From the NCBI GenBank assembly GCA_001824295.1, contig MHWY01000003.1, forward strand, positions 1 through 59,065: 59,065 bases of DNA. Direction: 5' to 3'. Shown here piece after piece: positions 4,022 through 54,324 of the stretch. The position numbers and the translations under genes were made by a program. The notes below the pieces were generated by a model. The model was not told the DNA's origin, ran no database searches, and was given only the letters and a program-made list of their open reading frames with translations. This DNA comes from Candidatus Zambryskibacteria bacterium RIFOXYD1_FULL_40_13 (GTDB lineage: Bacteria > Patescibacteriota > Minisyncoccia > Phycocordibacterales > DATDWN01). Numbering within the stretch: the first letter of the stretch is position 1; each line of letters begins with the position of its first letter.

Positions 4022-4094
4022 GCGCGATTAGCTCAGTTGGTAGAGCGACTCATTGACGTTGAGTAGGCCACAGGTTCGAGTCCTGTATCGCGCA
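4022..4094 (+). tRNA. tRNA-Val(GAC)
   Basis: GCGCGAT...ATCGCGCA; anticodon arm ACTCA-TTGACGT-TGAGT; GTTCGAG. Confidence 0.95.
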
Positions 4095-4232
4095 CAAAGA
4101 CGAAGTCTTGTGCCAGGACTCGAACAGATTAGCGGTTTACGCTTGCACCAGCAAGTGTCGCTAATCTGCGTTTTTGATTTTGGTTTTTGACGAAAAATCA
4201 AAATCGAAAAAGAGACTCCTGTATCGCGCACA
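4095..4232 (+). repeat. tRNA-trailing structured element, scaffold A (Val unit 1)
   Basis: Antisense T-arm caggactcgaac (4114-4125), core hairpin, GACG-loop hairpin, direct repeat of tRNA 3' end (4217-4232). Confidence 0.85.
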
Positions 4233-4395
4233 ATAAAGCCACCGTAAGGTGGATTTTTTGTGCGTTATAAGTAAAGTCATGTCATGACTTTACGTCAGGA
4301 TTCGAAAACCCTTGATAGTTTTTTGTGAGTCTACGAAACAAAAAACAGAAAAGGTGTACTGACCATGTAATGGTCGAGACTCCTGTATCGCGCAC
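4233..4395 (+). repeat. tRNA-trailing structured element, scaffold B (Val unit 2)
   Basis: tgtgcgttata-[hairpin 4270-4295]-caggattcgaa; core shared with the Lys element; direct repeat tcctgtatcgcgcac (4381-4395). Confidence 0.85.
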
Positions 4396-4487
4396 CCTAA
4401 TCTAACATTGGAAAAAACACAGAAGAAGATAAATAGGTACCAATAAAACAAGCCTAAAATTCTCTATATTTTAGCCTTGTTTTGTGC

Positions 4488-4810: not shown

Positions 4811-5734
4811 TTATTTAGCACGCAGAGTTATATAAATATCCTCAAGAGCTTTAACAGCATCACCTGAAGCGATGTTGTTTTGGTGGTATAGGCCATCTGT
4901 GCAATCCCCAGCAGCCCATATGCCGAGGATACTCGTTTGTTGAGTCCTTGGGTCTGTTGGTATTTGGCCAATTTCATTGAGCTTAATTATGTTTTTTGCA
5001 AAGTCTGTTGTTGGGATTAGTCCAATTTCTACAAAAATTCCAGATACTTTTAATCTGTCCCTTTCACCCGTTATTTTGTTTCTGTAATAAAGACCATCCA
5101 CAAATTTTCCTCCCTGTACCTCGATAATTTCTGAATTATTCAAAACCTTCATATTTGGGTGAGAGAGTACTTTTTTTACTGTAATTTCATCGGCTCTGAA
5201 TCTGTCGGAACGGTTTAGTAGAGTGACACTTTTACAATAGGCTAATAGTTGGGCAGCTGACTCAAATGCGGCATTTCCACCACCAATTACGGCAACATCT
5301 TGACCCGCGAAGAGGGGACCATCACATGATGCGCAATAGATTAGTCCTCTGTTGTCATATTCTTTCGCTCCAGGAACGTCTAATTTGCGTCTGGTAGACC
5401 CTGTGGCAATAAGTATGGTTTGTGTATGGTATTCTTCTTTTTCTGTAATTACGATTAATTTTTCACCGTCTTTTCTTATGTCTTGTACTGCTTCACCTTC
5501 TTTTATTTCTAGAGATTCGCCAGAATAAGCTAATAAGTGATTCTTAAGATTTTTTGCTAAATCATTGCCAGATATCTTGATTGTGCCAATCCAGTTTTCT
5601 ATACCTTCTGAAACTGTGCTCTGTCCCCCAAAATCTGGTGTAATTAAAAGGGTTTTAAGCTTTTTTCTAGCAGAATAAACACCGGCTGACACACCGGCCG
5701 GCCCTCCACCGATTATTATTAGTTCATAAGTCAT
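4811..5734 (-). CDS. trxB: Thioredoxin-disulfide reductase family (TrxB-like)
   Basis: GGGPAG FAD motif, CASCDG redox pair, GGGNAA NADPH motif, WAAGD. Confidence 0.85.
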   Translation of the reverse strand: MTYELIIIGGGPAGVSAGVYSARKKLKTLLITPDFGGQSTVSEGIENWIGTIKISGNDLAKNLKNHLLAYSGESLEIKEGEAVQDIRKDGEKLIVITEKEEYHTQTILIATGSTRRKLDVPGAKEYDNRGLIYCASCDGPLFAGQDVAVIGGGNAAFESAAQLLAYCKSVTLLNRSDRFRADEITVKKVLSHPNMKVLNNSEIIEVQGGKFVDGLYYRNKITGERDRLKVSGIFVEIGLIPTTDFAKNIIKLNEIGQIPTDPRTQQTSILGIWAAGDCTDGLYHQNNIASGDAVKALEDIYITLRAK

Positions 5735-5827: not shown

Positions 5828-6985
5828 TTATTTTAACTTGCTTCTTCGAAGGAAAGCTGGTACAGCACCCCACTCATCATCATCTGTAATTTCTAGAGTT
5901 TTTTCTGGTGTTTCTTGTGTTTGTGTGGGAATAGAATTAAATATTTTACCCTTTTCTTCCTTTACCACCTCCTTGTCTTTGTTATCGCCCATTATTTGCG
6001 TTGACTGAAAAAGAGTTTTCTTTGTAAAGTTCTCTGGAAAGTTTGAGGCTATAACGGTAATTTTAACTTCACCCTTCTTTAGTTTCTCGTCTCGCACTGT
6101 TCCGAATATTATTTTTGCATTAGGGTCAACTGATTCAGTAATAATTTTGGCAGCATCTTGAATTTCAAACATTCCTAAGTCATCTCCACCAGCAATTGAG
6201 AATAGTACGCCCTTAGCCCCGTTAATTGAAACCTCCAAAAGAGGGGAATTTATAGCCATTTTTGCCGCTTCCTCAGCTCTTTTCTCACCTGTTGCCGTAC
6301 CAATGCCCATGAGTGCTGAACCAGCATTTTCCATGATAGCCTTTATGTCTGCAAAGTCGATATTGATTATTCCGGGTGTGGTGATAAGGTCCGAGATTCC
6401 CTCAACAGCAGATTTCAAAACATCATCACATGTTGCGAAAGCACTTTTTGCTGTGGTTTCTTTGCTAATAGTTGAAAGTAGTCTGTCGTTTGGAATGACA
6501 ATGATTGCATCAACAGCCAAGCGTAGCTCCTCGAGTCCGACTTCAGCAAGCTTCATTCTCTGTTGACCTTCAAAGAAAAATGGTTTTGTGATGACTGCAA
6601 CAGTTAGGGCACCCATCTCCTTGGAAATTCTGGCAATTATAGGAGCAGCACCGGTTCCTGTTCCACCCCCAAGACCACAGGTAATAAACACCATATCTGC
6701 ACCCTTGATGGCTTCTTGTATTTCTTCTTTGGTTTCCTCTACTGCCCGTTTTCCAAGTTCTGGATTCATACCTGCTCCCAAGCCGTGTGTGAGGTTCTTG
6801 CCAATATGTATCTTTCTCTTGGCCATAGAGTGATGCAGGTCCTGAGAGTCAGTGTTTACAGCGATGAAATCCACTCCTCTGACCTTCGAATTTATCATGT
6901 GGTTTAAGGCGTTTTTTCCGGAACCACCTACTCCTAGGACTTTGATTCGTGCAAATGCTTCTACGTCTGGTTTGATTTGGGGCAT
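5828..6985 (-). CDS. ftsZ: Cell division protein FtsZ
   Basis: GGGTGTG tubulin signature, NIDFAD, C-terminal VPAFLRR. Confidence 0.98.
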
Positions 6986-17991: not shown

Positions 17992-18639
17992 TTATATGTC
18001 AAGGGGCATCCTTGACATACTCGTTTCTTTTAAATAATTTTCTGTCTCACCGACCAGTGAGTTTTTATCTCCAAATATTCCTAGCAGTAAATCTGTAGTG
18101 ACTATTTGTAGACCTCTTTCTTCACTGTAGTCTTTAAAACTACTCCACTTATATTGGCCCGGGTGTTTTACTAGTCCATCTTTTACTGGGTTCATGTGTA
18201 TGTATGCCGAGGCCCACATTAGTTGTGCGTCATCTTCTATTTGCACGGCCTTAAACTGATCTTGAAAGACATGGCCCACCCTTTTGTGTTTTTTGTTTAC
18301 AAACATGGCGTAACTCGTGCAAACCTTTGATAACATTTTTGAAATTGATGTGTTGTTTGTTTGTTCAACTAGTAGATGAAAATGGTTTGGCATTAGGCAA
18401 AAAGCATGAAGTTTGTAGTCACTTTTATTTGTATCCGTAATTCTTATTCTTGAGTAGGGAAGTGAAAGTAAATTATCTTTCTGAATTTCTTTTTCATCAA
18501 ATCCAAGACTTAGGCCAAGTCTAAAAAGAAACGCTCGATAATCTTGCTCGTCAAAGAATATTTTTTCTTTATTGTTTCCACGGTTGTAAATATGAACTAT
18601 TGTGCCGGGACCAAATTCCTTGAAGTCTCTATTTTTCAT
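17992..18639 (-). mobile_element. HUH Y1 transposase, REP-associated (RAYT/TnpA-REP-like)
   Basis: HIYNRGNNKEKIF...DY..F, CLMPNHFHLL (HUH), GHVFQDQFK, YIHMNP (catalytic Tyr), YKWSS. Confidence 0.88.
17997..18017. repeat. REP hairpin at the RAYT 3' end
   Basis: tgtcaaggggcatccttgaca; exact reverse complement of 18650-18670. Confidence 0.85.
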
Positions 18640-23465: not shown

Positions 23466-23502
23466 AAAACCCGCGCACCTCTCGATGAGTGTGCGCGGTT
23501 TT
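23466..23502. terminator. Bidirectional terminator
   Basis: aaaacccgcgcac...gtgcgcggtttt between convergent genes. Confidence 0.7.
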
Positions 23503-23520
23503 GCCTTTACGGCGAACGAA

Positions 23521-24252
23521 CTACTTCCCGACCGTGACCTTGACGGTCACTGGCCAGGAGACTCTAGATTGGAATTCGCCCCAGTCCATCCAGGGCAAGT
23601 TGCTATTAGTTTCTTTCCCAGGGCCGTCCTTGTACGGCTTTCCCCTGTGGTCCCAGATAGTGATGAGCCCTTCTGGCTCAATCATGCTACCTTTGGTGAG
23701 GTCTACCCGACAGCTCGGGCGTCCGACTGGGGCCGTGACGGTGTATGTCCCGTCGGCGTTCTGCTCACACCATTTGACGGCGCGTGTGGCCGACTCTGGC
23801 GACCAGAAGTTCTTCCAGGCCGCCCCGACATGTCCGGGGATTTCCACGAGGTTGACGCCCTTGGCGAGCACCGTCCTCCCCACCATGAACCCGAGGCCCA
23901 CGATGAGGATGGTCAGCATGACCCGCCCCAAGAAGTTCATCTTCTTCTCACCCTTCTTGCCGTCTTCCCTGTAGAACAGGAAGGCGACGGCGATGAGAGG
24001 GTGAGCGAGAAGTGACCACTTGGTGAAGAAGAGTGCCTTCCACACTTCTGGCCAGAAGCACCAGAAGGTGAAGTGACACAGAGCCACCCCGGCGAGTGGC
24101 TTGAGCCACCTACCGCTTTTGGACAAGTCGGGGAGGCGTAGCTGTCCCGTTGCCGAGCGAACCCGCGACGGCAGGGAGCTTTTCCCCACAATCACGAGGA
24201 CTATGATGGCCACAAGGATGGCCACATAGTTTTCGTTCCAAAACTCAATCAT
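23521..24252 (-). CDS. Hypothetical membrane protein (GC-rich)
   Basis: Several TMs, GGAGG SD, overlaps the SPFH gene end. Confidence 0.7.
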   Translation of the reverse strand: MIEFWNENYVAILVAIIVLVIVGKSSLPSRVRSATGQLRLPDLSKSGRWLKPLAGVALCHFTFWCFWPEVWKALFFTKWSLLAHPLIAVAFLFYREDGKKGEKKMNFLGRVMLTILIVGLGFMVGRTVLAKGVNLVEIPGHVGAAWKNFWSPESATRAVKWCEQNADGTYTVTAPVGRPSCRVDLTKGSMIEPEGLITIWDHRGKPYKDGPGKETNSNLPWMDWGEFQSRVSWPVTVKVTVGK

Positions 24253-25327
24253 GCGACCCTCCCTTCTGGTTCATGGCCGTCTTGAATGCGTCGACTAGGC
24301 TTTGGATAAGGCTGCCCCCCGCGAGGAACGTGTTGTGCCCACCCTTCAAGGCGTCGACAAGTGTTTGGAGCTGAAGGGCGTCCATGCCGTTCTTTTTCTC
24401 CATGACGAGGCGAATGACCTCCGTGCCTTCTGCCTGTTTCGTAAGCTGGGCAAGCAGGCCGTCAGCTTCTGCTAGAAGCAGGGCCTTCTTGGCTTTGGCC
24501 TCACCAACGCCGTGAGCAGTCAACTCGTATTTCTTGGCATCCGCTGCTGTTTTAGTTGCGCTGGCTTCTTGGGTCGCAGCGTGTGCCTTGGTCACTGATT
24601 CGTTGAGGGTGTGGCTAAAGATGATGGGCTTGATCTCAGCTACACTGATCCTGATGCCCCAGTCCACCACATTGTCAGCAAACACCTTTAGTAATGCTGC
24701 ATTGTGTGTCCCGAGGTCTCTGTTCACTGCGGCCGGCGACTTCACTGTGAACTCCCTGTTGAACAGGGCAATCGCCACGTCCTCCAGGTTTTTCAGGGTT
24801 CTCTCGACCGTTCCCATCTTCTGAAGCCAACGGCACGGGTCGCTGATTTCAAAACTCACGAAGATTGGCACTTCTGCCACGATTCGCGAGTTGTACGGGT
24901 CGTCCTTCGGCAAGTTTTCATCCGCTGGTCCGAACAAGATTCGGATTGGCGGTTTCATGTCAGACCCAACTGGGGGTGGAGCGTACTTGTCATCTTTGGT
25001 ACCGCGCCAGATTTTGTCTGGCTCTGCTGGCAGTTCTGCTTGAACTATCCGTCCTTCCACGGTTTTGAGCTTGATGAGACCGAGTGGTGCGAGCACTGGT
25101 CCCGGCCCAACGTTTGCATATGGGTATCCGAGAAACAGCAAGGCGCCTTTCTGGTCATGCTCGACTTTGTCGATGCTTGCCCAGATGTAGTACCCCCCTC
25201 CGATGAGGGAGAGGAGTCCGAGGCCCTTGATGCCGTAGGTGGCCCCGAGGGTCGTTCCAACAAACATCAGGACTCCGAGAACGATCGCGAAGCAGGTGAT
25301 TCCAACCAGGTCGATATTCTTCATCAT
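24245..25327 (-). CDS. SPFH/band-7 (prohibitin/HflC-like) membrane protein
   Basis: N-terminal TMs, 'V...Q.GALLFLG......GPG', 'WGIRISVAEIK.I', Ala-rich coiled coil; TTGACT-17-TAGAAT promoter (25436-25464). Confidence 0.7.
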   Translation of the reverse strand: MMKNIDLVGITCFAIVLGVLMFVGTTLGATYGIKGLGLLSLIGGGYYIWASIDKVEHDQKGALLFLGYPYANVGPGPVLAPLGLIKLKTVEGRIVQAELPAEPDKIWRGTKDDKYAPPPVGSDMKPPIRILFGPADENLPKDDPYNSRIVAEVPIFVSFEISDPCRWLQKMGTVERTLKNLEDVAIALFNREFTVKSPAAVNRDLGTHNAALLKVFADNVVDWGIRISVAEIKPIIFSHTLNESVTKAHAATQEASATKTAADAKKYELTAHGVGEAKAKKALLLAEADGLLAQLTKQAEGTEVIRLVMEKKNGMDALQLQTLVDALKGGHNTFLAGGSLIQSLVDAFKTAMNQKGGSHD

Positions 25328-25544
25328 GGTTTCTCTCCTAAGTCGTGTTTCCAATCTAGATGTCAACGAACTCTTCCAGGAACTTCCTGGAAACCTCTCG
25401 GGAAATTCCCGTGAGTATCCGTTGTCTCTGTATATATTCTATCACAAAACACACAGAAAGTCAATGTTTATGTGCTACGAAACATGGCCTAAATAAAGGA
25501 TATTTTTTGAGCAAAAATAGCCCGGCCGACTCGAGTCGGCGGGG

Positions 25545-25829
25545 CTATCTGTGACGAAGGGTGAACTTCAGCCCGTGGTCGTTTGCGTTGTAGTACGCTT
25601 CGACCACCCAGCCGTGGTAGATGCTCTCAAGCTCTACCATCTGTGCGAAATTAACCCTAGCACCTCTACGGCACTTCTCTGGCCCGTTCATACTGACAAA
25701 TGTCGGGCCCGTGTACCTCTGGTCGCGAGCAAGTAGGGCTTTGTCGATGATGTCCAGAAGCCCAGTTACCCGTGTGGTGTCAGCGGAAACCTTCCGCTCA
25801 AGCACCGCAGATTGGGCTCTTGTGTGCAT
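25545..25829 (-). CDS. Hypothetical protein (orphan cassette)
   Basis: GAGGTG SD; terminator hairpin ~25515-25548. Confidence 0.5.
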   Translation of the reverse strand: MHTRAQSAVLERKVSADTTRVTGLLDIIDKALLARDQRYTGPTFVSMNGPEKCRRGARVNFAQMVELESIYHGWVVEAYYNANDHGLKFTLRHR

Positions 25830-25889
25830 CTTACACCTCACAATTTACTGTTCGCAGTTATGCTACTACAGACAGATGCTCCTGTCTAA

Positions 25890-26072
25890 TTGTGGGTAAG
25901 GAGGGGTACTCTTTTTTAATAATAAAATGTCGTCACATTTTATTATTAAAAACCCAGATTCACGACACTCGCTGGTGCGAGCGTAAACCGTGAATCTGTT
26001 CGAGCCCCTCACGCAAAGCTTCGCTTTGCTCTTACCCACAAATCAAAAAACCGCTTTCGCGGTTTAGATTTG
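25890..26072 (-). repeat. tRNA-trailing structured element, scaffold A (Leu-TAG)
   Basis: tgtgggtaag-[hairpin]-gaggggctcgaac; core homologous to Val unit 1; direct repeat at 25891-25905. Confidence 0.88.
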
Positions 26073-26154
26073 TGGGTAAGGAGGGACTCGAACCCTCAAG
26101 CCTTACGGCACTAGTTCCTAAGACTAGCGTGTCTACCAATTGCACCACTTACCC
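26073..26154 (-). tRNA. tRNA-Leu(TAG)
   Basis: GGGTAAG...CTTACCCA; CTAGT-CTTAGGA-ACTAG; long variable arm. Confidence 0.95.
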
Positions 26155-26168
26155 AAAAAATACGAAAT

Positions 26169-26316
26169 CAGTAGGGAATCGACCATTACATGGTCAGTAC
26201 ACCTTTTTGTTATTTGTTTCGCTTTGCTCACAAATAACTATCAAAGGTTTTCGATCCCTAACGCAGACTATAACATAGTCTGCTCTGGGCGTAAAAAAAT
26301 CGTAACCGATTTTTTG
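26169..26316 (-). repeat. tRNA-trailing structured element, scaffold B (Lys)
   Basis: cgcccag-[hairpin]-tagggatcgaa; core closely similar to Val unit 2; short repeat ccctactg. Confidence 0.85.
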
Positions 26317-27109: not shown

Positions 27110-27288
27110 TGGTGCCCGAGGTGGGAATCTTCCGCAACTAAAAATTTTTCGTCAAAAATTTTTGTCGTGTCCGCAGCTCGCGACCCGCGCTGTTGCACGG
27201 GTACCCCGCTTCGCTTTTCGATTCCCAACATAAAGCAATAACATTGCTTTATTCCTCGGACACACAAAACTACCGCATGGTAGTTTTT
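27110..27288 (-). repeat. tRNA-trailing structured element, scaffold C (Leu-TAA)
   Basis: gtgtccgagg-[hairpin]-tgggaatcgaa; GACG hairpin; 20-bp direct repeat including CCA (27110-27129). Confidence 0.85.
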
Positions 27289-33757: not shown

Positions 33758-36433
33758 ATGCCACCGATTAATCATTTTACGACAAAAGCAAAGGAAGCAA
33801 TTCGTAGGGCCCATGAGCTGGCTATTGAGCGTGGCCAAAGTCATGTCAATTCACTGCATTTACTGACCGCTCTGATTCTCCAGGAGGAGGGAATTGTCAC
33901 TTCTATCTTAGATAAAATGGAAATAGATTCCATTCTTTTAACCGATTCACTTATTGAGGCCATAGAAGGTTCGGATGCAGGACAAACTCTTTCGGCTTCG
34001 TATCAGGTTTATCTTACGCCAGACTTAGCTGGGGTTTTAGAGGGTTCAGTAAAACAAACGCCAATACTTGGTGATGATTTTGTTTCTACCGAACATCTTT
34101 TCTTGGCCCTTATTGATGTCACAAGTCCAGCCAAAGATTTGTTGATGAAATTTAAAATCCAAAAGGATGCTGTTCTTCGTGTCATTGAGGAAATAAGGAG
34201 CGTAAAAACTACCAACACTGACTTGCCAAAGAAATTTAAGTCACTGACAAAATATACAAGGAATCTGACAAAGCTCGCAAGCATGAATAAGCTTGATCCA
34301 GTAATCGGAAGAGATGATGAGATAGGACGCATCATGCAGATTCTTTCTCGCAGAACAAAAAACAATCCGATTTTGATAGGAGAAGCTGGTGTGGGCAAGA
34401 CTGCTATCGTTGAAGGCTTGGCTATCAGAATATCAATGGGTGAAGTACCAGAATCACTTCGTGATAAGGAACTCGTTTCTCTGGATTTAGGTCTCTTGGT
34501 TGCTGGTACAAAGTATCGTGGCGAGTTTGAGGAAAGATTGAAAAATATATTGAAAGAAATAGAAAAATCAGACGGCAAAATAATCTTGTTTGTTGACGAG
34601 ATTCACACCATAGTTGGTGCTGGTTCTGCCGAGGGGTCACTTGATGCTTCAAACATGTTAAAGCCCGCTTTAGCTCGTGGTGAGCTTCGTGCCATCGGTG
34701 CTACAACCCTCAAGGAATACCAGAAACATATTGAGAAAGACCCCGCACTTTCAAGAAGATTTCAGCCGGTGTATGTAAATGAGCCAAGTATAGAAGACGC
34801 AATAACTATTCTTCGAGGGCTTAAGGAAAAATATGAACTCTATCATGGGGTTCGTATAACAGATGAGGCTATTATTTCTGCTGTAAACCTTTCAAGTAGA
34901 TATATTTCTGACAGATTTCTTCCAGACAAAGCCGTTGACCTTATAGATGAATCAGCTTCTTATCTGAAGATTGCTTTGGAAAACAAGCCACCTGTATTAC
35001 AGAGTGCCCACTCCAAAATAGTAAAACTTCAGATAGAACATGAGGCACTGAAAAAGGAAACAGACATGAAATCCAAAACTCGCATTAAGGATATAGAAAA
35101 GGCAGTTGCAGACCTTAAGGAAGAAACCGGAGAACTTGAGCTCAAGTGGAACAATGAAAAGGAAACAGTAAACGATATTAAAAACATCAAGAAACAACTT
35201 GAGGAGTTTCGTCGTGAGGCAGAGGTGGCAGAAGCCAAATCAGACTTAGCTCTTGCAGCTGAAATCAGATACGGGAAAATTCCATTACTGGAAAAAGATT
35301 TAGATGGGAAATCAAAGAGACTGAAGAAGCTTCAAAGTTCAAGGAGGATTTTGAAGGAAGAAATAACTGAAAATGATATAGCCATGATTGTTTCCAGGTG
35401 GACAGGTATTCCTGTTACAAGGATGTTAGAAGAGGAGGCAGATAAATTAAATCGCATGGAAGATGTGTTGCAGAAAACTATTGTTGGACAGAAAGAGGCA
35501 GTGCAGAAAATATCCGATACTATCAAGAGAAGTCGTGCGGGTATCTCCGATCCAAACCGACCAATAGGCTCTTTCTTGTTCCTTGGGCCCACTGGTGTTG
35601 GAAAAACAGAACTGACAAAGGCTTTGGCTCAGTTTATGTTCAACGATGAGAAATCACTTATCAGAATAGACATGTCTGAGTTTATGGAGAAGCACAGTGT
35701 GTCAAAAATACTTGGTGCTCCTCCAGGATATGTCGGGCATGAGGAGGGTGGAACTATAACCGAAATGGTTCGTCATAGACCATACTCTGTTATTCTTTTT
35801 GACGAGGTAGAGAAAGCGCATCCTGAGGTGTTCAATGTTTTACTGCAGATTCTTGACAACGGCAGGCTGACCGACGCAAAAGGAAGGGTTGTAAACTTTA
35901 GAAACACAGTTATTATCCTAACCTCAAACATCGGTTCTCAATATGTAGATAAAATGGAAAAGATAGGTTTTGCTTCCGGGGGCAGTGAAAAAGCAGTTTA
36001 TGAAGATGCAAAAGCAAGAGTAATGGGGGCTCTAAAGGATCACTTCCGACCAGAGTTTCTTAACCGCCTGGATGACATCGTGGTGTTCGATATATTGAGT
36101 CGTGAAGCTGTAGCTGAAATAGTTAAAATTCAAGTAGAAATAGTGCGCGAGAGATTGGCGCAAAAGGAAATCAAATTAATCCTTTCTTCTTCTGTTCTAA
36201 GTTATCTTGCAAGTGAAGGTTATAGTCCTCAGTATGGTGCAAGACCACTGAAGCGTCTAATACAGACAAAAATACTGACACCAATCGCCTCCCTTATGAT
36301 TAGTAAGGGTCTCTCTAAGGGCGGCTCAATATCTGTAGATATGAAGGGTGGAGAGCTTACATTCAATGTAAAGAAAGGTAGGAATGGTTCGTTTGTGGCG
36401 AATTCGTTTGTCCAGGATGGAGCCTTGGCATAG
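33758..36433 (+). CDS. clpB: ATP-dependent chaperone ClpB
   Basis: Two AAA modules ([16 protein letters not shown]), long middle domain with AAEIRYG, GARPLKR. Confidence 0.95.
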
Positions 36434-54002: not shown

Positions 54003-54062
54003 TGGGAGATCGCCCGTCTCGACTCGGCCAAGCTCGCGAGCCGAGGTGGATCTAACGGTAGG
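54003..54062 (+). pseudogene. Duplicated 5' fragment of tRNA-Gln split by a 38-bp hairpin insert
   Basis: tgggagatcg-[54013-54050]-tctaacggtagg equals the first 22 nt of tRNA-Gln. Confidence 0.7.
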
Positions 54063-54080
54063 GTATTTGAAAATAAATTT

Positions 54081-54151
54081 TGGGAGATCGTCTAACGGTA
54101 GGACAGAGGCCTTTGAAGCCTTTAATTGGGGTTCGATTCCCTGTCTCCCAG
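54081..54151 (+). tRNA. tRNA-Gln(TTG)
   Basis: TGGGAGA...TCTCCCAG; GAGGC-CTTTGAA-GCCTT. Confidence 0.93.
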
Positions 54152-54324
54152 CAAAGCAGAGCGAAGCGAAAGCTTTGCTGGGAGAAGCAAATTGAAAATT
54201 TGCGTCAGGGAATCGAACGGATTCGCGGTCTACTGACCGAGTACGGTCTGTCGCGAATCCGCGTTTTCACTTTTGATAAGTGTCGACGAATCAAAAGTGA
54301 AAAAGATTACCCCTGTCTCCCAGC
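54152..54324 (+). repeat. tRNA-trailing structured element, scaffold A (Gln)
   Basis: gctgggaga-[hairpin 54186-54205]-cagggaatcgaac; core; direct repeat at 54311-54324. Confidence 0.88.

Follow-up and report, generated by a model that had tools for sequence, protein, structure and literature searches.

The tRNA-Leu(TAG) unit and its counterparts in the window

The tRNA-Leu(TAG) gene (26072–26154, minus strand; ARAGORN, 56.6 bits with the Rfam tRNA model) is one of ten tRNA genes located by ARAGORN in the window, the whole 59,065-nt stretch of DNA that was analysed, and it is matched by a module lying immediately behind it on the same strand. Positions 25890–26072 hold this entire unit. Read in the tRNA sense, a terminator-like hairpin (26041–26070), the stem of which is lengthened by pairing of the flanking spacers, directly follows the tRNA and leads into an antisense copy of the acceptor 3' strand (26031–26040), which in the predicted fold forms the 5' arm of an outer closing helix and pairs with 25891–25900. 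A 7-bp hairpin (hairpin 0, 26013–26029, placed by folding) separates this segment from a second antisense segment (26002–26010), which copies the T-stem 3' strand and T-loop, ends in TCGAA and pairs with 25901–25911 across a 2-nt bulge. The core consists of scaffold A hairpin 1 (25955–25998; a 10-bp outer stem, a GTYT bulge, an inner stem of eight pairs and an ANYA-type loop) and hairpin 2 (25913–25952; an AT-rich 18-bp stem with GACG in the loop). The unit is closed by a distal sense copy (25891–25911) that runs from the T-loop to the tRNA's 3' end, carries two extra bases and supplies the 3' arm of the closing helix. All of these features are on the minus strand.

Scaffold A is present in three copies in the window against an expectation of zero, each just 3' of a tRNA gene: tRNA-Val(GAC) (4022–4095, plus strand), tRNA-Leu(TAG) and tRNA-Gln(TTG) (54081–54152, plus strand). 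A degenerate 21-nt pattern for the 5' part of the scaffold matched exactly these three window sites without mismatch and found nothing in 100 dinucleotide-preserving shuffles. The hairpin 1 strings quoted in the sequence-only reading were located as given, cagattagcg-gtttac-gcttgc-acca-gcaagt-gt-cgctaatctg 3' of tRNA-Val(GAC), cagattcacg-gtttac-gctcgc-acca-gcgagt-gt-cgtgaatctg in the tRNA-Leu(TAG) unit and cggattcgcg-gtctac-tgaccg-agta-cggtct-gt-cgcgaatccg 3' of tRNA-Gln(TTG), and the order described there (an AT-rich hairpin with a GACG loop, then AGA, then a repeat of the tRNA T-stem 3' strand and acceptor) was seen behind all three.

The scaffold A module behind tRNA-Val(GAC) occupies 4096–4233 on the plus strand (123.7 bits with R1, a covariance model made from type A) and comprises hairpin 0 (4097–4109), an antisense segment (4110–4121), hairpin 1 (4125–4168), hairpin 2 (4171–4210) and the sense copy (4212–4229). 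It is followed in tandem by a second module, of type B (4234–4398, plus strand), which ends in a third copy of the tRNA 3' segment. Behind tRNA-Gln(TTG) the module spans 54153–54324 on the plus strand (R1, 138.3 bits), with antisense segments at 54177–54185 and 54206–54214, hairpin 0 at 54187–54203, hairpin 1 at 54218–54261, hairpin 2 at 54264–54303 and the sense copy at 54305–54324. Two further minus-strand modules, both with approximate boundaries, lie behind tRNA-Lys(CTT) (type B with the same layout, 26164–26315) and tRNA-Leu(TAA) (type C, 27110–27288; R1 gave 52.3 bits at 27120–27252).

Modules are generally ∼130–180 nt in length, contain no ORFs and follow a single order: a terminator, an antisense segment copying the T-loop, the T-stem and often the acceptor 3' strand of the tRNA, a hairpin core and a partial sense copy. 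In all three scaffold A units of the window the stretch from the tRNA to the repeat folds as a single closed, branched structure, with energies of −55.6, −69.3 and −66.5 kcal/mol (z = −6.5, −10.3 and −7.4, respectively); none of 200 shuffles folded as well. The closing helix, formed by the two antisense segments and the sense copy, mirrors the T-stem/acceptor duplex of the tRNA gene and is broken by hairpin 0 and, on its 3' strand, by a 2-nt bulge that is constant; two or three hairpins lie inside it. The antisense segment is equally able to pair with the real tRNA 3' end upstream, and the tRNA end, spacer, terminator and antisense segment together make up a long palindrome. Only one side of the T-arm is copied in the closing helix, which is not a full two-armed recombinase site. 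The earlier hairpin picture was correct as to the stems, and had missed the enclosing helix of antisense and sense tRNA copies, the existence of at least four core types and the mobility of the units.

The host genome (0.73 Mb, 95.7% complete, 37 tRNA/tmRNA loci) was surveyed by reading by eye the 260 nt 3' of all 35 ARAGORN tRNA genes, of the tmRNA gene and of a tRNA gene split by a group I intron. At least one module was recognized in this manual reading at 15 of the 37 loci, and at least four interchangeable core types (A–D) share the same layout logic. Type A was assigned at Val-GAC, Leu-TAG, Gln-TTG, Lys-TTT, Ser-ACT and twice behind the intron-bearing tRNA; type B at Ala, the second Val unit, Lys-CTT and Ile-TAT; type C at Leu-TAA, Gly-GCC, Ser-CGA and behind the tmRNA island; and type D at Met and Gln-CTG. 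Hairpin 0 is common to types A, B and C, and types A and C are related, since the type A covariance model also finds type C.

Searches of the window with Rfam 15 at the gathering score matched only the tRNAs, with no family over the modules; relaxing the threshold to E values of up to 10 gave only weak, chance-level matches there. No description of these modules was found in full-text searches of the main texts of the literature. The module family is not catalogued in Rfam and has been left blank by genome annotators.

Covariation and conserved unpaired bases

Pairing was evaluated in alignment A2, made up of 31 genus copies of type A and comprising 39 pairs and 1207 paired-column cells. Of these cells 95.7% were paired (72.8% in shuffles), 33 of the 39 pairs had changed on both sides (22.6 ± 1.8 in shuffles), 283 cells carried double changes (79.9 in shuffles) and the covariation score was 0.631 (0.185 in shuffles); not one of 500 shuffles attained any of the observed pairing or covariation values. 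When the partners were slid by 1–3 columns, at most 49% of the cells were paired and the score did not exceed 0.144. Changes on both sides were found in five of the seven pairs of hairpin 0 and in all 15 pairs of hairpin 2, and the same helices were recovered independently by RNAalifold. The compensatory stem changes first noted across the three window loci therefore persisted and grew in number with the 31 genus copies and with 55 copies from across Patescibacteria; the sequence-only reading had allowed that they might vanish as sequences were added, and with 31 copies this did not happen.

The unpaired positions behave differently from the stems. Among the 31 copies the bulge of hairpin 1 reads GTTT in 20, GTCT in nine and ATCT in two, and its loop reads AGTA in 13, ACCA in 11, AACA in four, AGCA in two and AATA in one. 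The foot of the inner stem carries a G–T juxtaposition in 20 copies, T–T in eight and A–T in three, and in the wider family the internal loop of hairpin 2 holds purine–purine juxtapositions (AG in 44, GA in 43 and GG in 34 cells). The stems are under selection for pairing and the unpaired motifs are conserved. The suggestion that selection acts on a single-stranded structure is supported by this combination of co-varying stems with maintained bulge and loop motifs.

Correspondence between a module and its tRNA

A set of 75 modules was assembled from 32 genus pattern matches, 11 loci from the order and 39 loci from across Patescibacteria, from which those without an anchor were removed; one of the 32 genus matches (L008) was a false positive in coding sequence. 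A tRNA gene on the same strand lay within 260 nt upstream of 67 of the 75 modules. In 59 of these 67 the 12 nt ending in TCGAA were complementary to positions T54–N65 of the cognate tRNA (31 with no mismatch and 28 with one), compared with 5.3% of pairings with non-cognate tRNAs. The sense copy, scored over 8 nt from N61 with at most one mismatch, was present in 53 of the 67 modules (4.2% in the control), leaving 14 without a recognizable one. The modules span 27 anticodon labels, and their orientation is always that of the tRNA.

Hairpin 1 cores are near-identical behind different tRNAs of one genome, for example behind Leu-TAG and Lys-TTT, and it follows that the scaffold is held constant while the flanking antisense/sense pair is exchanged. 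Each module is in this sense 'programmed' to its tRNA by an antisense and a sense copy of it.

Distribution in Patescibacteria

The strict pattern was found in 16 of 36 other genomes of the genus and in none of 24 genomes from other families of the order. The covariance model R1 reached further, with matches in 36 of 41 genus genomes and, elsewhere in the order, in 17 of 150 genomes (which makes 17 of 132 genera if that of G000 is included); all 11 order-level loci that were read lay just behind a tRNA and showed the full layout. A pattern for the commoner hairpin 2 variant was then used on a species-representative genome collection and matched at least 120 stretches, with record titles that included Paceibacterota, Nomura-, Kaiser-, Yonath-, Zambryski- and Taylorbacteria, Parcubacteria and many metagenome-assembled genomes labelled Saccharibacteria, together with some unrelated and probably chance matches (for example in Streptomyces). 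Of 80 loci fetched from many Patescibacteria lineages, 53 were confirmed by R1, with 55 matches. A tRNA ended 8–164 nt upstream of 40 of the 54 cross-Patescibacteria matches examined; among the remainder four lay at contig edges, one lay behind an intron-bearing tRNA and several lay behind islands. The module family is thus widespread in Patescibacteria (CPR) and phylum-wide.

In viral contigs the scaffold A pattern gave no matches. Loci matching the C-type pattern (22) and the B-type pattern (11) were taken as chance because all of them were in coding-like sequence without hairpins or a tRNA.

Turnover at orthologous tRNA genes

Orthologous sites were compared at the conserved Cys/Leu-TAA/Lys-CTT/Leu-TAG cluster in six species of the genus. 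Leu-TAG is followed by type A in two species, by type B plus three right-end fragments in one and by a plain terminator only in another. Lys-CTT is followed by type B or type A, and Leu-TAA by type C, type A or nothing. Where units stand in tandem (behind tRNA-Val and on contig C7) they share the tRNA repeat as their boundary, and arrays also hold truncated right ends and decayed tRNA repeats, a picture of recurrent insertion and decay familiar from islands linked to tRNA genes. Because orthologous tRNAs carry different modules or none, and because modules form tandem stacks and shed fragments, they are taken to be mobile, and from these comparisons they appear to have been gained, lost and stacked at tRNA genes. 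No excised form and no read across an empty-site junction was observed. The 16 public runs listed were all of groundwater or soil DNA, with no RNA run among them. The contigs of four of the DNA runs likewise gave no informative empty-site or circle junction; they consisted of short pieces, and the joints came from tRNA clusters of other organisms.

In some cases additional DNA separates the tRNA from the module, amounting to 1.35 kb at Ser-ACT, 4.1 kb at another locus and 8.2 kb in the genome G191. The 4.1 kb insert encodes an excisionase-like helix–turn–helix protein and a DUF4238 protein. Elsewhere, cargo near modules includes a restriction-modification pair, a DUF5677 gene, a SocA-type antitoxin and an IS200-type gene. 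In the island adjoining the Leu-TAG module, ORFs of 98, 373 and 243 amino acids matched no Pfam or NCBIfam family.

Nucleic acid and strand

The tRNA is separated from the module by a hairpin that resembles a terminator and carries a T run; between this hairpin and the module no σ70-like promoter was found. The comparison of G–U with A–C pairs proposed in the sequence-only reading was carried out and revealed no wobble excess: G–T/T–G and A–C/C–A cells numbered 24 and 15 of 1207 in the genus alignment, and 28 and 31 of 2019 in the model-fitted cross-Patescibacteria alignment. Structured RNAs normally tolerate G–U far better than A–C. The pairing therefore looks Watson–Crick-only, as in DNA hairpins or in palindromes homogenized by gene conversion, and the comparison leans towards pairing at the level of DNA over RNA; hairpin gene conversion that maintained the pairing of function-free stems would leave wobble pairs just as unenriched. 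Taken together, a terminator without a following promoter and the lack of wobble excess favour folded DNA rather than RNA.

With DNA parameters, the predicted fold of the tRNA-sense strand was more stable than that of its complement for 30 of 31 genus copies and 55 of 55 cross-Patescibacteria copies; RNA parameters gave 30 of 31 and 54 of 55, respectively. The bias was −3.8 and −3.0 kcal/mol, against −1.2 and −1.7 kcal/mol in mononucleotide shuffles; as the asymmetry is partly compositional, the assignment of the sense strand is moderate and not strong.

Candidate recombinases

None of the recombinase families tested co-occurs with the modules. In the host genome (95.7% complete, as above) no matches were obtained for IS110-type genes (PF01548, DEDD) or for TnpB-type genes. 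The single tyrosine recombinase of the host is Xer-like, scoring 245 bits with the XerD model, exceeding the cut-off only of an XerA-type model and reaching 139.7 bits with the integron-integrase model (cut-off 265); on the contig that carries its gene, the nearest tRNA cluster is ∼5 kb away. An integron integrase with attI and a cassette promoter was not found in the host genome. A Xer-type enzyme is encoded in 40 of the 41 genus genomes, 36 of which have exactly one tyrosine recombinase, and no other recombinase is found in almost all of the genus genomes. This ubiquity is weak evidence, on which a mechanism dependent on a host enzyme, as in Xer-exploiting elements, is the simplest option. 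Action on tRNA genes is not known for Xer enzymes. No dif-like site resembling the module was found, a crude scan with an Xer-arm motif giving weak and unconvincing matches.

Two large serine recombinases are encoded in the host genome, one beside tRNA-Thr and one beside the tmRNA gene. Such genes occur in 30 of 41 genus genomes; a tRNA was found inside 18 of the 30 fetched loci, typically convergent with the recombinase gene, and no module was found in any of the 30. This family was rejected as the partner, since nine module-bearing genomes lack it and three genomes with the recombinase have no module match. No distal core repeat of 11 nt or longer was found in six serine-recombinase elements of the genus (up to 20 kb fetched). 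The G191 island, which runs from the tRNA through a serine recombinase and cargo to the module and the repeat, was ruled out as an autonomous parent element: its recombinase element is a separate, later insertion, because a short acceptor remnant and the module's own terminator precede the module and no such distal repeat was found in the six genus elements. It is inserted at the true tRNA end and not in the tRNA copy of the module. As serine-recombinase elements also use tRNA 3' ends, some of the apparent cargo between tRNA and module represents separate later insertions.

Y1 (IS200-like) enzymes, two genes for which are present in the host genome, were likewise rejected, being found in 21 of the 41 genus genomes and missing from many module-rich ones. 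Two reverse transcriptases of the host, one belonging to a diversity-generating retroelement and one unclassified, were set aside as neither lies near a module.

Interpretation

We propose that the modules are recombinase-less, tRNA-programmed attachment sites that act as folded single-stranded DNA, a reading to which we give an even chance of being correct and in which we infer both the enzyme and the mechanism. The module would work as DNA, folded as the tRNA-sense single strand, and would be the attachment or recognition site of a cassette. An enzyme acting in trans would insert the cassette at the T-arm of the tRNA gene that it matches, and such a site would find its nearest analogues in the attC sites of integrons and the folded CTX phage attP; the duplicated target segment would be the source of homology in strand exchange, and protein would contact the conserved bulges and loops.

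A structured RNA, either guide-like for an RNA-guided recombinase or nuclease at the tRNA gene or acting in cis on read-through tRNA transcripts, would account for several of the same observations but is unlikely. A constant scaffold flanked by tRNA-specific antisense (59/67) and sense (53/67) segments recalls bridge (seek) or transposon-end guide RNAs, the covariation is strong, the purine–purine juxtapositions of hairpin 2 and the G–T juxtaposition of hairpin 1 (20/31) are features usual in RNA motifs, the greater stability lies with the sense strand and the orientation is always that of the tRNA. Against this, a terminator intervenes between tRNA and module with no σ70-like promoter after it, wobble pairs are not enriched over A–C mismatches, no Rfam family matches, the host genome has no IS110-type or TnpB-type gene, and many module-rich genomes lack Y1-like and large serine recombinase genes. 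Antisense and sense segments moreover share one target stretch and pair with each other, unlike bridge RNAs, which have a two-flank guide arrangement. The wobble statistics are as compatible with another account, in which the modules are inert scars, arms of attachment sites that remain from earlier integrations at tRNA genes, with inverted repeats kept paired by intrastrand (hairpin) gene conversion and without present function. That both mismatch types are symmetrically rare, that arrays contain truncated right ends and decayed tRNA repeats, that 14 of 67 modules have no recognizable sense copy and that no partner enzyme was found would all be expected of scars. We nevertheless consider this account quite improbable: one multi-part architecture, with its bulge and loop motifs, is common to the genus and to distant Patescibacteria lineages, the match to the tRNA has survived in 59 of 67 modules, near-identical hairpin 1 cores behind Leu-TAG and Lys-TTT indicate recent spread, and gene conversion alone does not give stems that vary around unpaired motifs that are kept.

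A service to the host is a further alternative, with the module acting as a terminator or insulator of the tRNA gene, as a processing element or as a decoy site that diverts tRNA-targeting integrases. The module does supply a terminator for the tRNA and does mimic its acceptor/T-arm duplex, tRNA-targeting serine-recombinase elements occur widely in the genus (in 30 of 41 genomes, 18 of 30 loci containing a tRNA) and one such element sits between tRNA and module in G191. That element, however, used the true tRNA end and not the decoy copy. Turnover between species is fast, types are interchangeable at one tRNA, sites are empty in close relatives and only 17 of the 150 other order-level genomes yielded modules, so that a host-serving flank is very unlikely to be the explanation.

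The proposed folded-strand attachment sites were also compared with known systems. Genomic islands and tycheposon-type elements insert at the 3' part of tRNA and tmRNA genes, restore the gene and have a partial tRNA copy at the far end; in tycheposons, successive insertions push older ones outwards as remnants (10.1101/2020.12.28.424599). The modules resemble these elements in their position, in restoration of the gene, in the direct repeat of the tRNA 3' segment, in their stacking and in their remnants, whereas each island brings an integrase of its own (tyrosine or large serine type) along with kilobases of genes and the modules are gene-less. The modules further add an antisense copy of the target and consist almost wholly of co-varying hairpins; neither 'hairpin' nor 'secondary structure' occurs in the passages of that text that were consulted. 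Integron attC sites and the forked-hairpin attP site of CTX phage are folded single-stranded DNA with an imperfect inverted repeat of ∼60–150 nt, in which structure and extrahelical bases are conserved and the sequence is free, and CTX phage lacks a recombinase of its own and uses the host XerCD. The modules share the free stems, the conserved unpaired bases, tandem stacking by a fixed site and the absence of their own recombinase, but their target is the tRNA T-arm instead of attI or dif, there is no integron integrase in the host, and their arms are copies of the target gene that change with the target.

The structured non-coding part of IS110/IS1111 elements, the bridge (seek) RNA, is similarly complementary to its target and in principle reprogrammable; the module differs in having one antisense/sense pair in place of separate target and donor loops, and the host has no DEDD recombinase. 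MITE/REPIN-type elements are likewise small, gene-less, hairpin-forming, bounded by inverted termini, present in many copies per genome and presumably moved in trans. The termini of the modules, by contrast, are variable and copied from the neighbouring tRNA, their insertion is strictly behind tRNA and tmRNA genes, and no co-occurrence with Y1 (RAYT/IS200-like) genes was seen.

A more far-reaching version, which we put forward only tentatively and regard as doubtful, is that Patescibacteria possess an integron-like cassette system that uses tRNA genes instead of attI. Cassettes, whether gene-less or cargo-bearing, would terminate in folded single-stranded DNA, a site copying the T-arm of the target tRNA in both senses, would be retargeted by changes of ∼12–25 nt and would be inserted by the single Xer-type enzyme of the host or by an undescribed enzyme, perhaps when single-stranded DNA enters the cell.

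Implications for CPR bacteria

Even under the modest readings the modules constitute a large, strongly co-varying and uncatalogued structured element. Confirmation of a programmable mechanism with an enzyme acting in trans would take them beyond both tRNA-targeted integrative elements and folded-strand recombination sites. If the proposal of tRNA-programmed attachment sites is right, they would add a further example of structure-specific (folded-strand) recombination sites and would offer a naturally reprogrammable insertion module for study. In CPR bacteria the genomes are tiny, classical mobile elements are few and the exchange of genes is poorly understood; on the same proposal these bacteria would carry abundant, hitherto undescribed tRNA-targeted mini-cassettes, the target of which is set by nucleic-acid complementarity and not by a dedicated integrase, and this would explain the growth of islands behind their tRNA genes.

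Large serine recombinases and associated RNA

Genes for large serine recombinases, whose elements are separate from the modules but also insert at tRNA 3' ends, were found in 30 of the 41 genomes of the genus, with at most eight per genome (genus loci L084–L113), and were usually placed convergently with a tRNA 3' end. The source genome (0.73 Mb) contains such regions on contigs C9 (1–1766) and C8 (1847–8165); the recombinase gene on C9 is flanked on both sides by 50 bp perfect inverted repeats. A LOOT RNA (Rfam RF03000) was present in both of the large-serine-recombinase islands that were examined, approximately 1.2 kb from the start of the recombinase gene. It lies on the minus strand at 4845–4966 of contig C8 (89.6 bits) and, likewise on the minus strand, at 6019–6147 of locus L247 (75.4 bits).

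Other mobile-element genes

A 215-amino-acid ORF with a partial Y1 (IS200-like) transposase domain is encoded on the minus strand of the window at 17992–18639, and a second ORF with a partial domain of this type was located on contig C2. Longer Y1-like genes of such a kind occur in 21 of the 41 genomes of the genus. The source genome also carries two reverse transcriptase genes (contig C1, 69917–70984; contig C2, 52757–54100), one of which adjoins an Avd gene and belongs to a diversity-generating retroelement. Its counterpart, a neighbour of ychF, falls into no recognised class.

Surroundings and arrangements of the tRNA-associated modules

Immediately past the distal tRNA-Leu repeat, the sense copy of the tRNA-Leu(TAG) 3' part which ends the type A module of that tRNA, the window enters an island (23500–25890) with a G+C content of 53%, compared with ∼40% elsewhere. 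A promoter-like site is situated at this start of the island, and its ORFs (98, 373 and 243 amino acids) had no match among the Pfam or NCBIfam families.

A partial or pseudo copy of tRNA-Gln with a hairpin of ∼36 nt inserted in the D-loop region was found at 54003–54070 of the window, directly 5' of the genuine tRNA-Gln(TTG). A tRNA-Gln-like copy with a near-identical insertion lies behind tRNA-Gln(CTG) on contig C5 (about 34900–35010).

On contig C7 (16682–16996; locus L036, 683–949) a tRNA gene overlooked by ARAGORN is split by a group I intron that scores 81.5 bits in Rfam. Behind this gene stand two modules of type A, separated by 4.1 kb of cargo. Locus L166 contains two identical modules inverted around a single terminator (2564–2885), forming a large perfect palindrome, which may be genuine or may be an assembly artefact. 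In the type D module behind tRNA-Met on contig C5 (21118–21330), one hairpin appears to hold a nested type B-like piece.
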